Source: Candidatus Collierbacteria bacterium
GTDB taxonomy: Bacteria; Patescibacteriota; Microgenomatia; UBA1400; JACPES01
Length of the DNA stretch: 64,000 bases
Reading direction: 5' to 3'
Assembly (NCBI GenBank): GCA_016183365.1
Contig: JACPES010000003.1
Coordinates: 409,154 to 473,153, forward strand
Made by a program: the position numbers. Position 1 is the stretch's first letter. Every line of letters starts with the position of its first letter. This document shows, piece by piece, positions 12,001 through 57,000 of the stretch.

Positions 12001-15000
12001 ATATTCTGATGCCATTGGCTAATTCGAATTCTTGTTCAGCGATTTTTTGCGGTTGCAGCTTAGGTAACAGGGATAATCCCAAAGCGATTCCTGAAGAAAA
12101 ACCTGTATCAATTAGGCAATCAATAGTCAGCCGGTTTTTTGGGGCTTTGATGCCTATGGAAATTCGAGGGGAATCGTGATCGGTAAGGTATACTTTCACT
12201 TGAGCATTCCTGCTACCCGACCGACTTGAGCAAGGAAAAAGATCTTTTTCGGGTGTCTCTTTTTCAATTTTTTGATCGCTTCAAGTGATGTTTCTGCCAC
12301 AGAATAGTCTCCTGTTTCCACGTCGATGGTAACGTAGTCTTCAGGAACGTACTTTTCTTCCAGTTGAGGTTTTAACTGGTAGTAGATTTGTTTCCCTTTT
12401 TCTACAAATGATTTTTTCATGAATTGAGTATACCATTACTCGGGAAACTTGCGCCGTCGATGAAGAGAAAAGTTTTCATCTTCGATAGTATGTTACCAGT
12501 TTTACGACTGCGTTGATAACATCCGAAATATCCTTTTTGTTCATAGTTGGATAAATCGGAAGAGAAAAGATATTCAGGCCGATGCGTTCGGCATTTGGAA
12601 AATCACCGAGTTTATATTCGAAAGTTTTCCGGTAGTATTCCATCAAGTGAACCGGAGTAAAGTGAACGCCGCAGCCAATGCCTTCTTTTTGGAGAGCGGC
12701 AACAAATTTATTTCTGTCTATTTTTAACATTTCCGGCTTAAATGCTAAAGCGTAGAGATGACGGGCGTGGATGATGTTGGATTCGTCAGAGCTTGGAGTT
12801 TGCAGGCAGTTAATTTTAGAAAACGCTTTCTGATATTCTCCCCAGATTTTATTTCTGATCTTCAAATTTTTTTCAATAGATTGGAGTTGTGGTAGTCCCA
12901 GCGAGGCTTGGATATCGGTCATGTTGATTTTGTAGCCGGGATAAACGGCTTCGTAGGGCTTAAAGCCGGCTGCGCTGTAGCGTTTCCAGGCGTCGGCTGA
13001 TAAACCATGAAGAGCCCGGACTGTAGCAGTGTCGTACCATTTCTTATTATTGGTTGTCAACATTCCGCCTTCGCCGGTCGCTACATTTTTGGTGGCGTAG
13101 AAAGAGAAAGCGGTAAAGTCGCCGATTGAACCGATCTTTTTGCCGTGATACCAGGCTTCGGCGGCGTGGGCCGCGTCTTCGATGACATAAAGTTTATGTT
13201 TATTAGCGATTTTACCGATCGCATCCATATCTGCCGGCCGGCCGTGAAGATGGACGGGAATAATCGTTTTGGTTTTTCCGGTGGTCGCCTTTTCAATTTC
13301 GTCAGGATCAATATTCCAAGTTTTTAAATCAACATCTGCGAATTTAACCGTGGCGCCGCGATGAAGAACCACATTTGCGGTGGACACAAAAGTTAAGGGA
13401 GTAGTAATAACTTCGTCGCCGGGGCCGATCCCAAGAATGTCCAGAGCCAGTTCGGTGGCGGCGGTACAGGAGGACAAGGCCAGGGCATATTTGGCGTGAG
13501 CGTATTTAGCGAATAATTTTTCAAACTCTTTGGTTTTTTGTCCGGTCCCCCACCAGTCGGAACGCAAAGTTTCCAAAACCTCTTTTATTTCTTCGCGGAA
13601 CAGCATCGGCCGGCCGAAGACCAGGAAATTTTCTCTAACAGGTTTTCCGCCTTCGATTGCTGGTTTGTAATTAGCGGGTAGTTTTTTCAAGTTGTTTAAA
13701 GCGATCCGAATGATCCGAATCGGCATCCGAATTATCCGAATAGATTTATTCGTATCATTCGGATGGATTCGTAGATTAGTATCGCGTTGACATGATAATA
13801 TCACGTTATGCCTGAACAGTTTGACGTCAGTTTAGTGTTGCCGTGCTACAACGAAGCGGAACATTTTAATTTGAGCGTTGACAGGATAATCAGAGTCCTT
13901 GACGGAACTGATTTTTCTTGGGAAATAATTTTTATTGACGATGCTTCGACTGATATCACTGCGGATTTAATTAAATCTTATATCAAAAAAACCCCCCGAA
14001 AACATTTAACGGTCTATTCTCACCGGAAAAATTTGGGCCGGGGAGCGACGGTGACAGAAGGAATAGAAAAATCTCAAGGTAAAATCGTAGGATATATCGA
14101 TATTGACTGCGAAGTGCCTCCGGATTATATTCCCCAGTTTGTGTCAGCAATAGATAATGGCGCTGACTTTGCGGTCGGTTGGCGGATTTATGACTTTACG
14201 ATCAAGAGTTTGCCGCGGTGGTTTGCCAGCAAGGGTTATAACCGGATTAGGAACGGGGTTTTAAATACCAGTTTAAAAGATACGGAAGCGGGATATAAGT
14301 TTTTTCGTAAAAGTAAGATTTTGCCGGTTTTAAAACAATGTATCAGCCCTGGTTGGTTTTGGGATACAGAAGTGACGGTCCGGGCGCAGAGGGCGGGATT
14401 GAAAATCAAGGAAATGCCGGTAGTTTTTATCCGCCGTTTCGATAAAGCTTCGACGGTAAAGTTGATCCCTGACACTTTTGTTTATCTTAAAGAGCTATGG
14501 CGATTCAAAAGAAAACTAGACAACTCCTGTTAATTTTGCTGATTGCTTCACTTTTAAACGGAATAAGTTGGGTCGCGTTGATTCCGATGTGGCAGACTCC
14601 AGACGAGCAGGCCCATTTTGCCCAAGCCCAAGATATTGCTGCCATTGGCTACCGGCCTAACCCCGGCGCTTCAACTTCTCAAGACATTGTCCTATCGGAG
14701 AAATATCTGGGTACTTTCCGTGACGAAAGAGGGAATAACCGGTTTACTTATCATCCGGAATATAACATTGAATATAGTAATTCCGCTTATGGTTTATACG
14801 AGAAAGAATTGATGGCGATGCCGGTAGAGTCAAGAAATATTTTCGCGATAAATGAGGCCACCGGATATCCGCCTTTATACTATCTATATATATCAACCAT
14901 GAATAAACAATTTTGGAGCCTAGACTTGATTTCCAGAGTGTTTTTGTCCAGAGTGGCTACTGCTTTATTGTCCGTAGGATTGGGAGCCGTAGTTTTTTAT

Positions 15001-54000: not shown

Positions 54001-57000
54001 TGACAGAGGTGAACAAAGAACCAATTATGGCGTCGGCAAAAGAGGTGCAATTTAATCCAGGATCGAGGAGCGCCAAACTAAGAGTCGCAGAGAAATTATG
54101 AGATTAATCGTTTACGTCATATTATTTGTCAGCACGGTTGTGATCTTGATAAATTTAGCCATGACCAATTCTTTGGCTTCAGACGGGAGAGGCTTGGCCG
54201 GATTAATGGATAAAGAAATAGAATTGAACTCGATAACAGCAAATTTAGAAGCGGATATAATGGTGGCCGGATCAGTGTTTTCAGTCGAAAGCAGAGCCAA
54301 GGAATTGGGCTTCAACTTACCCTTGAAAGTGGTGGCTATTAAACCTCTGCCAATAGCCTCTAAAGGTGATTAACAGAGTTAGAATCGTAGTTTTATTTTC
54401 GTTTTTTTGCTTCATGGCAGTGGTGGCAAGATTGTTTTATTGGCAAATAATCCGAGGCAAAGAACTGGCAGCAAAAGGCCTGGGGCAATATTTTTATACC
54501 CTGTCTTTGCCGGCCAGGCGCGGTGAAATATTGGCTGTGGATGGGTCGGTTTTAGCCGGATCAAAACCATCATATCTGCTTTACGCTTACAAACCTAATT
54601 TTTCGGGAGACTTTAAGGAGGTGTCAGTCCGGTTGGCGGATTTGTTAATGTTTGAATCAGAGAACGAAGCCTCTCCGGGGGCGAAATCTTTTGATGATAT
54701 AAAAAGTGATTTTGCAAATCAAATATTTTCTAAATTATTTAAAAAATCAGTCTGGGAGATCTTGGTAAAACGATTAGATTCTTCCCAAAAAAATGTTATA
54801 GATACTTGGCATATTCCGGGTTTGGACTTTCAGTCTTCCTGGTCCAGGTTCTATCCTGAAGCCAGTTCTGGAGCTCATATTGTGGGTTTTGTAGGGCAGG
54901 ATGCCGCCGGCCAGCCTAAGGGTTATTCCGGTTTAGAAGGATATTATGAACGGGAATTAAAAGGCCTTTCCGGCAATTTAAAACAGGAAAAAGATGTTTT
55001 CGGTAATCCGATCCTAGTGGGATCTTTTTCGGAAACTCAAGCAATATCCGGCAGGACGATTTCAACTTATATTGATAGATATGTCCAAAAGATTTTAGAG
55101 GTTGAGCTTTTGAAAGGAATGGATAAATACGGAGCCGTAGCCGGGGAAGCAGTAGTTATGGATCCAAGAAACGGAGCGATGATTGCTTCGGCTTCGTATC
55201 CTAATTACAATCCAACCGATTATTGGGAATTCGACCAGAAGTGGTTAAAAAATCCGATCATTTCCGAAGGATACGAGCCCGGCTCGACGTTTAAAACAAT
55301 AGTCATGGCGGCGGCGCTGGATAGCGAGGCGGTTGAGCCGAACACCAAATGCGATATTTGCGCAGGCCCGATTAACATCGGCCAGTATCTAATCCGGACT
55401 TGGGACGGAAAATATCACGACGGTATTGATATGACAGATACTATCGTTCATTCTGATAATACCGGAATGGTTTTTGCCGCCAGAAAGCTTGGTAAGGATA
55501 AATTGCTGGAGTATATTAAAAAATTCGGGTTCGGGAGTCTATCCGGAATAGATCTTCAGGGAGAAACCTCTCCGAACCTAAGACCGGAACTTAAGGATAT
55601 TGATCTGGCTACCATCTCTTTTGGCCAGGGAATAGCTGTGACTACTATTCAGATGTTGAGGGCGGTTGCGGCCATCGCCAATGACGGGATAATAGAAACA
55701 CCTGTTTTAGCCGAAAAAATCGGCAGTGACAGTCAAAATATGCTTTTCGTAAATAAAAAACCAGGGGAAAAGGTGATTTCTAAAGAAACCAGCGAAAAGT
55801 TAAAAGAGATGATGGTAAAAGCCGTTATCAATGGTGAAGCTAAATTCGCCGCCCCCAAAGGCTACAGAATTGCCGGTAAAACCGGTACTGCTCAAATTCC
55901 GGTGGCCGGCCATTATGATAATGAAAAAACGATTGTCAGTTTTGTCGGGTTTGCTCCGGCCGATAACCCAAAATTCGCCATGATTGTTAAATTAAGAGAA
56001 CCAACCACTTCTCCCTGGGGATCAGAAACAGCGGCGCCGTTATGGTTTAATATAGCAAAGAAGTTATTGTTGTATTGGGAGATAGATCCTGATGAATAGC
56101 AGAGCTGTAGATTTGAAACAATGCGATCCTAATATCCGAATTCATCCGAATGATCCGAATATTCAGGATTCGTAGATTGGGATCGCTTATCATGTTGCAA
56201 TTATTAAAAAACTATCTCTGGCATTTGCCAAAAGCGATTATCGCCAACGTCATCTACGGCTTTCCGGCTCGAAAGTTGTCTTTGATCGGAGTTACCGGGA
56301 CTAAAGGCAAGACCACAACTTCGCATTTGATATATTATCTTTTAAAAGAATCAGGGTTTAAAGTCGGCTTAATTTCAACCATCGGAGCTTTTTTATCCGG
56401 AAAAGAAATTGATACAGGGTTGCACATTACCAGTCCGGATCCGAATGAACTGCATAAATTGCTGAAGTTGGCGGTTGATTCCGGGATTAAATATGTGGTT
56501 TTGGAAGTTACTTCAAACGGTTTGGATCAATTTCGGGTGTGGGGAATTAAATTTAAAGTAGCGGTGATTACCAATATTTATCCGGATCACTTGGATTATC
56601 ACGGGACGATGGAGAAATATGTGGCTGCCAAGGCAAAAATAATCAGGCAGGCGGAGACGGTGGTGGTGGCGAAGGATTCGCCGTACTTTGAAGAAACAAA
56701 AAACAAAGAACAAAAAATAAAAAACAGGATTGTAGCTTTTGAATCTAGGGGTTCGATGGTTTCTGCCAATAGGGCAGCAGCGGTGGCGGCGGTGGAGGTC
56801 TTGGAAATTAAGTCATTTAAGGAACTTAAGAAGCTTAAGTTACTTAAGATGCTGGAGAATTTTTCCGGAGTGCCGGGGAGAATGGAAACGGTATATGACA
56901 AAGAGTTTAAAGTAGTGATTGATTTTGCCCATACGCCGGAGAGTTTGGCGGCGGCTTTAGGGGAGTTGAGAAAGTTGGTTAAGAAAAATGGGCGATTGAT

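Follow-up and report, generated by a model that had tools for sequence, protein, structure and literature searches.

Three repeats at gene junctions of a Candidatus Collierbacteria bacterium (CPR/Patescibacteria) are probably gene-less, non-autonomous copies of a CPR-wide palindromic hairpin mobile element, which resembles rRNA IVS and REPINs and would be co-transcribed within operons. The element family, hereafter family A, is widespread across the CPR and found in many phyla. Our genome scan identified at least ~25 hairpin-type copies in Saccharibacteria, Roizman-, Portnoy-, Staskawicz- and Uhrbacteria, Paceibacterota, and others, and the copies listed from other CPR genomes agree in architecture and in their conserved mismatches. 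Their flanks are A-rich on the left and T-rich on the right. The neighbouring genes (L20, L16, SecY, NusG, RNR, and others) are functionally unrelated, and several copies lie inside essential operons (L16, SecY, NusG, L20, ftsI|murE).

Anatomy of the copies and their effect on gene calls

The window, i.e. the whole stretch of 64,000 nt that was analysed, contains exactly three copies, all on the + strand (Table 1). A fourth lies at the murB|murA junction just beyond it, which makes four in the ~82 kb of the host genome that were searched, with pairwise identities of 69-82% within the genome. The octamer ATCCGAAT has 15 exact matches in the window where 5.4 +/- 2.3 are expected (none of 100 shuffles reaches 15), and 13 of the 15 are inside the three clusters. 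We built a profile from 17 hairpin-only elements, 3 from the window and 14 from other genomes. It gives 76, 61, and 38 bits to copies 1 to 3 (E-values of 8e-23 to 7e-11), scores that are partly circular because the window copies helped build the profile, and nothing better than E = 0.8 in the rest of the window. The element was also recovered from independent Logan assemblies of the same organism and is therefore not an assembly artefact.

Table 1. Coordinates of family A copies and of associated features in the window
Feature	Position	Strand	Basis
Four-helix-bundle "IVS protein" gene (PF05635)	10410-10864		arms TTGAGCG x4 and TTCAACG x4
DegT-family aminotransferase start codon TTG, likely true	13688..13690	-	homologue alignment
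Family A copy 1	13701..13785	+	76.4 bits, hairpin fold
Family A copy 2	34546..34627	+	60.8 bits, hairpin fold
Methyltransferase stop codon TAA, in copy 2 loop	34587..34589	+	ORF reading
Family A copy 3	56123..56186	+	38.2 bits, hairpin fold
MurE true start codon (MLQLLKNY...)	56192..56194	+	orthologue starts

The copies, of 64-85 bp, share one layout, in which ATCCGAAT is repeated four times in direct orientation and a short loop leads to an inverted arm of degenerate sequence (ATTCGGAT / ATTCGTAG / ATTAGGAT), with termini closed by GCGATCC...GGATCGC. Copy 1 occupies part of the 117-nt divergent spacer between the genes of DegT (-) and GT2 (+). Its 5' arm (13701-13741) is GCG followed by four ATCCGAAT with start-to-start spacings of 9-12-9, its loop is AGATTT, and its 3' arm reads ATTCGTAT C ATTCGGAT GG ATTCGTAG ATTAGTAT CGC. 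Copy 2 has four units spaced 8-10-9, the loop ATTTAAGG, and the 3' arm terminus ATTCGTAGATTAGGATCGG; it fills the entire methyltransferase|GT4 intercistronic space, and its last base is 5 nt short of the GT4 ATG (34633). Copy 3, between ftsI and murE, has the same 8-10-9 spacing, is shorter as it lacks one 3'-arm unit pair, has a basal pair altered on both sides (CCTAAT/ATTGGG, giving U.G), and ends 5 nt ahead of the MurE ATG. The earlier note had placed three copies with dyad symmetry at these gene junctions; our boundaries are within 2-3 nt of its own, and every copy turns out to be one long imperfect hairpin.

Folded as RNA, copies 1 to 3 each form a single long hairpin (-36.1, -30.5, and -24.4 kcal/mol; z-scores of -2.8 to -3.2), and their folding as ssDNA gives z-scores of -2.6 to -4.4. 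The proportion of paired cells is 82.5% in the hairpin register and 22-49% in slid registers. Changes between GCG/CGC and AUA/UAU at the ends of the stem are compensatory, and a sister subfamily has the terminal inverted repeat ATAATCC...GGATTAT. The stems, of ~25-35 bp with internal loops, have a size and shape that RNase III could accept.

Because stop codons are scarce in the element, it creates spurious N-terminal extensions (DegT, MurE) and real C-terminal tails (methyltransferase, MurB). The earlier note expected false N-termini at all three junctions, and when we aligned these proteins the extensions of MurE and DegT were indeed not shared by orthologues or homologues. All MurE orthologues, as well as NCBI's own 393-aa call, agree with the start at ATG 56192, and the in-frame ATG 56150 inside copy 3 adds a false MIRIFRIRRLGSLI extension. 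The alignment of DegT with its homologues begins only at ORF residue ~41-62, so TTG 13690, 11 nt outside copy 1, is the likely start of a protein beginning with MKKLPANYKPAIEGG..., and residues 1-38 (GTG 13804 onward, including IRIIRMPIRIIRIA) are a false extension. The effect differs at methyltransferase|GT4: the last ~14 codons of the methyltransferase (SDPNIRMHPNDPNI) come from the 5' arm of copy 2, and this C-terminal read-through is genuine, as the reading frame stays open up to the TAA in the loop. MurB, just beyond the window, also has a real C-terminal tail derived from the element. Family A systematically corrupts CPR gene calls by fusing ORFs, altering C-termini, and adding false N-terminal extensions. 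The resulting artefact tails can be recognised (IRIIR..., DPNDPN..., HSDxSD...) and flagged with the element profile.

Arms flanking GxxExxY nuclease genes

In the full-length form of the element, the arms flank a ~120-aa GxxExxY gene (PF13366, PD-(D/E)XK) located in the loop. This is the case in two loci (L101 and L102) where the ATG and the TAA are within the innermost units and the genes match TIGR04256 with 59-68 bits as well as PF13366, and the same arrangement occurs in Aequorivita (Bacteroidota) and in L031. The gene encodes a predicted PD-(D/E)XK nuclease whose catalytic motif is intact. Its AF2 model has a pLDDT of 92, and the nearest folds, all weak, are Cas4, archaeal Hjc resolvases, tRNA-splicing endonucleases, and a homing endonuclease. 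Of 80 metagenomic GxxExxY genes, most lie between inverted arms of tandem octamers of this kind, and 25 have family A profile matches at their loci. Nearly all of the 40 loci whose flanks were inspected have ATNCNAAT arrays upstream and complementary arrays downstream. For the 71 loci with both flanks, the duplex energy is -56.5 kcal/mol between cognate arms, -43.4 between non-cognate arms, and -35.1 for shuffled arms. In several loci, among them L144 and L125, the gene interrupts the profile match, so that each flank carries half of it, and L144 also has a gene-less copy 550 nt from the gene-bearing one. In the GT2 ORF of L031 there are three in-frame insertions, two of them GxxExxY cassettes and the third a gene-less hairpin; such coding insertions argue for selfish insertion and not for a designed processing site.

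These observations suggest how the element might work. The hairpin has three to four tandem ATCCGAAT octamers in its 5' arm and complementary, characteristically imperfect ones in its 3' arm, and the full-length form holds the GxxExxY gene in its loop, with start and stop codons in the innermost units. Copies would be transcribed through in polycistronic mRNAs without terminating transcription, and the ~30-bp imperfect RNA stem would be a likely RNase III substrate, like the stems of rRNA IVS. Once extruded as a hairpin or cruciform, gene-less copies could be mobilised or replaced in trans by a cognate GxxExxY nuclease, in analogy to REPIN/RAYT. We counted it against this reading that the ~82 kb of host genome searched yielded no GxxExxY gene, so that a cognate nuclease in the same cell is only presumed. 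A bolder proposal, which we make only tentatively, is that hairpins and GxxExxY genes constitute a previously unrecognised class of mobile elements, in which a minimal Hjc-like nuclease recognises cognate octamer hairpins or cruciforms and copies or replaces them in trans, a pairing akin to REPIN/RAYT but with another enzyme. Such a class would account for where rRNA IVS come from and how they move, and for the function of GxxExxY. Mobilisation of the hairpins by the nuclease, if real, would be a new bacterial transposition or homing chemistry, and a direct test needs no more than a protein of 120 aa and a substrate of 80 nt. The results link three poorly understood things: the abundant intergenic tandem-unit hairpins of the CPR, the large uncharacterised GxxExxY (PF13366) family, and the decades-old puzzle of the origin and spread of rRNA IVS.

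Turnover among relatives and alternative explanations

Three relatives have conserved mraZ-rsmH-ftsL-ftsI-murE synteny, and their ftsI and murE genes overlap or are 24 nt apart, with no element in between. The methyltransferase|GT4 junction has a tandem-unit hairpin in all 5 relatives examined, with different occupants. In the distant relative L329 (72% aa identity) the copy differs from copy 2 at 1 of 82 nt, i.e. it is 99% identical within flanks that are ~78% identical, forming an identity island of 92-97% against 70-84%. Another relative (L330) has a different family A variant (70.9 bits), and the closest one (L328, 91-94% aa identity) has, like L331, an unrelated tandem-unit hairpin. This swapping of occupants at a fixed operon junction, together with a 99% island in diverged flanks, provides a natural system to study element turnover in uncultivated bacteria.

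The same data bear on another explanation, that these are intercistronic RNA hairpins selected by the host, either as processing or stability sites (for RNase III or another RNase) or for translational coupling, with the ribosome of the upstream ORF melting a stem that covers the downstream start. They would be conserved since a trans-acting factor recognises AUCCGAAU units, possibly as domesticated copies of mobile ancestry. We regard this as unlikely, albeit the most serious alternative. The presence of a stable hairpin at methyltransferase|GT4 in every relative suggests that the structure itself may be useful; however, the unrelated hairpin of the closest relative indicates that the sequence is not required there, and at ftsI|murE the three relatives have none. 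The contrast between 69-82% identity among paralogues and 99% at the orthologous site in a distant relative also fits purifying selection on a functional element. Around 12 of the 15 scorable copies are in sense orientation (~12:3), a hint of constraint at the RNA level, but arm complementarity has no sense/antisense bias and so does not directly point to selection on the RNA. In the host genome, three of four copies end 5-7 nt ahead of the downstream ATG and two enclose the upstream stop codon in the hairpin, and the non-canonical positions (G.A, A.G, C.U) are conserved across phyla, all of which would be in line with host selection. Yet the 3' arm's AGGA is unlikely to be a selected ribosome-binding site given the low use of Shine-Dalgarno motifs in the host genome (5 of 31 genes), the neighbours have unrelated functions, and elements and GxxExxY cassettes also occur in frame inside coding sequences.

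The earlier note had suggested MITE-like elements, and this is correct in part. Family A is short, non-coding, palindromic with terminal inverted repeats, multicopy and dispersed, and polymorphic in presence, being absent from the orthologous site in three relatives, and homologous arms flank a nuclease gene. A classical MITE, which would derive from an insertion sequence by deletion and be moved by a DDE-type transposase binding its terminal inverted repeats, is nevertheless very unlikely because we found neither target-site duplications nor a transposase at the copies and loci inspected. In the flanks of about 20 inspected copies we found no target-site duplication and no defined target motif. 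Gene-bearing relatives with the same arms encode the GxxExxY protein and no known transposase: between homologous arms there is only the 120-aa PD-(D/E)XK gene or, with heptamer arms, a four-helix-bundle gene. Furthermore, the entire element is a tandem-octamer palindrome and not unique sequence bounded by inverted repeats.

The other suggestion of the earlier note, shared regulatory or terminator modules, found no support, and we think it very improbable that family A is a regulatory module at the DNA level, whether a shared promoter, an intrinsic terminator, or transcription-factor sites arrayed as direct repeats at intervals of 9-12 bp. With spacings of 9+12 (=21) or 11-11 bp, units would face the same side of the helix, and copy 1 occupies a divergent promoter region. 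But spacing varies (8-10-9 in copies 2 and 3), and the deviation of the 3' arm is fixed and orientation-specific, which means that the two orientations are not equivalent sites. Promoter and terminator consensus matches at the copies are not above those in shuffled sequences, and no T-run follows the stem at any copy. We rejected an intrinsic terminator, as the copies have no terminator-like site and elsewhere occur within essential operons, in which termination would have polar effects, and also a regulon, the neighbours being functionally unrelated across genomes.

[quoted passage not shown] In family A the octamers are identical and 0-4 nt apart, and variable spacers and a Tas gene are both absent, an anatomy that effectively rules out such arrays. 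Rfam gave nothing at gathering thresholds (the best sub-threshold matches, of 18-20 bits, are to miRNA-precursor models).

Comparison with known systems

Family A shares with MITEs (Correia/NEMIS, ERIC, RUP, BOX) a small, non-coding sequence with inverted ends at gene junctions, which would be co-transcribed and can alter neighbouring ORF calls, but it has no target-site duplication and no DDE transposase parent, and is an internally repetitive palindrome throughout. The in-frame insertions in L031 are reminiscent of Rickettsia palindromic elements (RPE), which can enter protein-coding genes in frame and be translated, whereas the copies in the window are intercistronic and only touch ORF ends. 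To our knowledge, RPEs have no version carrying a nuclease gene, and we expect no sequence relationship to family A.

The likeness to REP/REPIN-RAYT systems extends to short, imperfect extragenic palindromes dispersed at gene junctions, the lack of target-site duplications, and a GTAG tetranucleotide that recurs in the 3' arm. In those systems a nuclease-type gene, present once and flanked by the palindromes in inverted orientation, is far outnumbered by gene-less palindromes; for family A the hairpin form and gene-less copies were seen, on the basis of ~82 kb of host genome. The flanked gene differs, being a PD-(D/E)XK GxxExxY and not a RAYT (IS200/IS605-like Y1 HUH): the genes in all arm-flanked loci inspected are PF13366, and none is of the HUH type. 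The arms of family A are tandem octamer arrays where a REP is one 20-40-nt unit, and its hosts are CPR bacteria.

The 23S rRNA IVS, known also from Leptospira and Salmonella, are insertions in helices 25 and 45 that are excised by RNase III, and GxxExxY genes may also occur in rRNA IVS. They differ from family A in location, since our copies are in intercistronic spaces of mRNA operons and, elsewhere, in frame inside protein-coding genes, with none in rRNA; the window contains no rRNA, and all its copies are between or inside protein-coding genes. In Coxiella burnetii the IVS arm has three GACAGAT heptamers, in strain-variable number, which adjoin the S23p ORF, and RNase III cleaves the IVS (PMC4990558). 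For IVS the documented ORF family is S23p, a four-helix bundle (PF05635) (PMC4990558), whereas family A arms enclose GxxExxY (PF13366) and are made of spaced octamers (ATCCGAAT) instead of contiguous heptamers. The window has a PF05635 gene flanked by heptamer arrays, in the same arrangement as the GxxExxY genes within their octamer arms. In both kinds of elements inverted flanks pair into a long stem, short tandem repeats lie in the arm beside the ORF, and the loop is empty or holds a small ORF. Both are distributed sporadically, which suggests horizontal transfer, and one site can have unrelated occupants across lineages. A long tandem-unit stem with an optional small ORF in the loop is the design that family A shares with the 23S rRNA IVS.

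Family A hairpins in the window and in other genomes

An earlier note had described a dispersed repeat with dyad symmetry at three gene junctions. We found the repeats at these places. Every copy gives a single long hairpin with imperfect pairing when folded as RNA (z -2.8 to -3.2, + strand), and likewise when folded as single-stranded DNA (z -2.6 to -4.4). Every copy starts with GCG, followed by four direct ATCCGAAT units that are spaced start to start by 9-12-9 nt in copy 1 and by 8-10-9 nt in copies 2 and 3. This 5' arm is separated by a loop of 6-8 nt from an inverted arm whose units are imperfect (ATTCGGAT, ATTCGTAG, ATTAGGAT) and whose terminus is GGATCGC. 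The window has 15 exact ATCCGAAT matches, 13 of them inside the three clusters, against 5.4 +/- 2.3 expected, and none of 100 shuffles reached 15. A sliding MFE scan of the window was uninformative because G+C-rich coding regions fold just as well.

We built a profile HMM from 17 hairpin-only elements (the three window copies and 14 from other genomes). It matches exactly three times in the window, the next best match having E = 0.8; the scores of these copies are partly circular, since they belong to the training elements. The + strand outscores the - strand in all three, which defines the orientation of the element. The same element is present in independent Logan assemblies of the same organism, and a fourth copy of this genome, outside the window, stops 7 nt short of the murA ATG, with the MurB ORF extending into it. 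All 2-kb bins of the window (1-64000) have a positive GC skew, and the genes are mostly on the + strand. The window as a whole therefore belongs to one replichore, and + is its leading strand; this orientation is common to all family A copies.

Features of the window and of related loci
Feature	Position	Strand	Remarks
Family A copy 1	13701-13785	+	DegT/GT2 junction; 76 bits (profile HMM, partly circular)
Family A copy 2	34546-34627	+	Methyltransferase/GT4 junction; 61 bits (profile HMM, partly circular)
Family A copy 3	56123-56186	+	ftsI/murE junction; 38 bits (profile HMM, partly circular)
Family A, fourth copy	L333 (same genome) 15861-15946, ~window coordinate 67233	+	murB/murA junction; 67 bits
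Gene of four-helix-bundle "23S rRNA-intervening sequence protein"	10450-10824	-	PF05635; TIGR02436, 126 bits; between two operon genes
Heptamer arrays flanking the PF05635 gene	10410-10437; 10837-10864		TTGAGCG x4; TTCAACG x4; complementary (G.U on + strand)
Other gene-less hairpins, different tandem units	9012-9075, 16071-16150, 16697-16750, 17132-17262		All at gene junctions
G+C-rich compound palindromes, two families	17727-17786, 28410-28460, 47647-47678, 53912-53962; 22814-22895, 31541-31605, 45741-45822		Many within long ORFs
AAGGCCAGGCCTTT...AAAGGCCTGGCCTTTTT palindromes	27882-27917, 33896-33931, 52557-52592		
HEPN and nucleotidyltransferase pair	62315-63009		PF05168; PF01909, MntA-like
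Processive-GT2-like ORF, 852 aa	L031 1663-4221		Two GxxExxY domains and one gene-less CCGAAT hairpin, all in frame

We then scanned one genome per species with three tandem ATCCGAAT units. Among the matches listed were many period-12 coding repeats of unrelated taxa, as well as at least ~25 elements of the hairpin type, which come almost entirely from CPR (Saccharibacteria, Roizman-, Portnoy-, Staskawicz-, Uhr- and Falkow-bacteria, Paceibacterota). The latter share the architecture and even identical imperfections, with the consensus GCGATCCGAAT g ATCCGAAT nnnC ATCCGAAT ... TATTCGTAG C ATTCGGAT ga ATTCGTAG ATTAGGATCGC; a sister subfamily has the termini ATAATCC...GGATTAT. In the hairpin register as named, 82.5% of the cells pair, against 22-49% on a sliding register. 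The three terminal pairs show a compensatory switch from GCG/CGC to AUA/UAU, and three non-canonical positions (G.A, A.G, C.U) are conserved.

Altered gene ends and turnover among relatives

On the best-supported reading, the main demonstrable effect of family A in the window is to alter ORF ends. The false N-terminal extensions proposed in the earlier note are borne out for MurE and DegT, where alignment with orthologues (MurE) or homologues (DegT) shows them not to be conserved, and not at the methyltransferase/GT4 junction, where a C-terminal read-through is real. The window MurE is identical to a 393-aa protein of Candidatus Collierbacteria (Patescibacteria/Microgenomates group), and all orthologues have the N-terminus MxQxLKNY, which corresponds to ATG 56192; the extension MIRIFRIRR... 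from ATG 56150 is therefore false. In a full-library HMMER search, residues 1-38 of DegT had no homologue match, and the alignments begin at query residues ~41-62 and at residues 2-13 of the homologues. The aminotransferase likely starts at TTG 13690 (MKKLPANYKPAIEGG), 11 nt outside copy 1. The conserved core of the methyltransferase terminates in ...PPYYRQIFFV(K/E)I, after which the ORF continues across the 5' arm of copy 2 (SDPNIRMHPNDPNI) to a TAA in the loop, so that its C-terminus and stop codon are truly supplied by the element.

Three relatives with MurE 67-69% identical and the same order mraZ-rsmH-ftsL-ftsI-murE-glmS lack the element between ftsI and murE, which overlap by 4 nt or are separated by 24 nt. 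Copy 3 is thus a lineage-specific insertion. At the methyltransferase/GT4 junction, all relatives examined have a stable tandem-unit hairpin, and the occupant varies. One relative (L329, 72% aa identity) has a family A copy with 1 of 82 nt different, an island of 92-97% identity between flanks that are 70-84% identical. Another (L330, 56% aa identity) has a different family A variant (70.9 bits). The closest relative (L328, 91-94% aa identity) carries an unrelated hairpin of AATGG/CCATT units, and L331 a different unrelated one of AATGAGTA units.

A nuclease gene between the arms

At two loci of other genomes (L101, L102), the arms lie ~350-375 bp apart, and between them is a ~120-aa gene that has its ATG and TAA within the innermost units. 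This gene belongs to the GxxExxY family (TIGR04256, 59-68 bits; PF13366 PDDEXK_3). CCGAAT arrays also adjoin GxxExxY genes in Aequorivita (Bacteroidota) and at the locus L031. A metagenome scan with a GxxExxY alignment as query gave 80 loci. We inspected the flanks of 40, and in nearly all of these, ATNCNAAT octamer arrays lie upstream, the commonest octamer being ATGCGAAT, and complementary arrays downstream. Of the 80 loci, 25 have a match to the family A profile; at several, including L144 and L125, the gene lies between separate matches to the two halves of the profile, and L144 has a gene-less copy 550 nt from a gene-bearing one. Across the 71 loci where both flanks could be read, cognate arms pair at -56.5 kcal/mol, against -43.4 for non-cognate and -35.1 for shuffled arms.

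The function of the GxxExxY family is given as unknown (PMC3424549). The family shows a conserved PD-(D/E)XK catalytic motif (invariant D61 and K73, D/E at 71), and the AlphaFold model is confident (pLDDT 92); the structural neighbours, all weak, are Cas4, archaeal Hjc Holliday-junction resolvases, tRNA-splicing endonucleases and a homing-endonuclease domain. The ~82 kb of this genome that were covered yielded no GxxExxY gene. Viral contigs contained neither hairpin-type copies nor GxxExxY relatives, which leaves phage carriage without evidence. In the long ORF of L031, the units flanking one GxxExxY domain are CCGAAT/ATTCGG, and those flanking the other are CGCAGAC/GTCAGCG. In L125 and protein P0294, a GxxExxY cassette lies directly upstream of a type IV pilin gene (FTLIE motif), and because the ORF continues through the 3' arm, gene callers report a GxxExxY-prepilin fusion (PF13366 + PF07963).

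Nature of the element and likeness to rRNA intervening sequences

On the best-supported interpretation, family A is a palindromic mobile element, non-autonomous and of the GxxExxY-cassette kind (IVS-like, REPIN-like), that is co-transcribed in operons. The nuclease may mobilise gene-less copies in trans, acting on an extruded hairpin or cruciform; the RNA stem would be processed by RNase III, and transcription would not terminate at the elements. Target-site duplications were looked for at the copies and none was found. A limited full-text literature search found no published description of the element or of its association with GxxExxY, which does not by itself prove novelty.

A domesticated RNA-level role of the hairpins, as opposed to a purely selfish element, stays a live rival, since all relatives keep a hairpin at the methyltransferase/GT4 junction, the orthologous copy is 99% conserved against 69-82% identity between the paralogues of the window, and orientation is sense-biased (~12:3). 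However, arm pairing in the 71 GxxExxY cassettes has no strand asymmetry (G.U vs A.C, -56.5 vs -55.1 kcal/mol, p = 0.28), so that selection at the RNA level is not demonstrable there. The suggestion that the copies are shared regulatory or terminator modules is not supported: promoter-like and terminator-like matches at the three sites do not exceed those of shuffles, and no regulon is shared. In other CPR genomes, copies neighbour L20, L16, SecY, NusG, ribonucleotide reductase and others, and since these include essential operons, transcription has to pass through the elements. Rfam gave no match at gathering thresholds; permissive ones brought up just noise from miRNA-like hairpins. A portable Shine-Dalgarno sequence (the AGGA of the 3' arm, 9 nt ahead of the ATG) is a weak candidate because just 5 of 31 well-defined window genes have such a motif between -20 and -4 relative to the start codon. 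Leaders are A/T-rich, and this Collierbacteria genome seems to make little use of Shine-Dalgarno sequences. A CsrA-type GGA-motif leader, suggested by the sequence, was dropped because neighbour genes are unrelated and the element is missing from orthologous sites, and the anatomy does not match a TIGR-Tas array.

Several hairpin families with an architecture of the family A type occur in this genome, made of ATGGNTG heptamers, of AAGCAGGAAAC or, in a 130-nt hairpin, of AATTTNCA. The compound palindromes may be RPE-like coding insertions; one family is of the type TGTCATTCCCGCGAAAGCGGGAATC...GATTCCGTG...CACGGAATGAC, and the other is an 82-nt repeat whose copies at 22814 and 45741 are 98% complementary. 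The AAGGCCAGGCCTTT...AAAGGCCTGGCCTTTTT family resembles either an intrinsic terminator common to several sites or some other small repeat. Short repeats in the GT4 ORF (35146-35342), considered as further arrays, are ordinary coding sequence inside conserved GT4 domains. The HEPN and nucleotidyltransferase pair forms a type VII toxin-antitoxin-like module.

Family A has parallels among intervening sequences (IVS) of 23S rRNA. The stretch 10410-10864, with its PF05635 gene between heptamer arrays, is an IVS-style cassette outside rRNA; its left array adds a false N-terminal extension of ~27 aa to the downstream epimerase ORF (9441-10463). The 23S IVS of Coxiella encodes a protein of this family, and ahead of it stand tandem GACAGAT heptamers in a number that differs from strain to strain; this IVS is cut out by RNase III and considered selfish, its mobility being unknown (PMC4990558). 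For CPR, too, short IVS-type insertions have been reported at the canonical 23S sites (PMC11270868). Given these parallels, family A resembles the empty-loop form of an IVS-style cassette, but one that sits in mRNA instead of rRNA.
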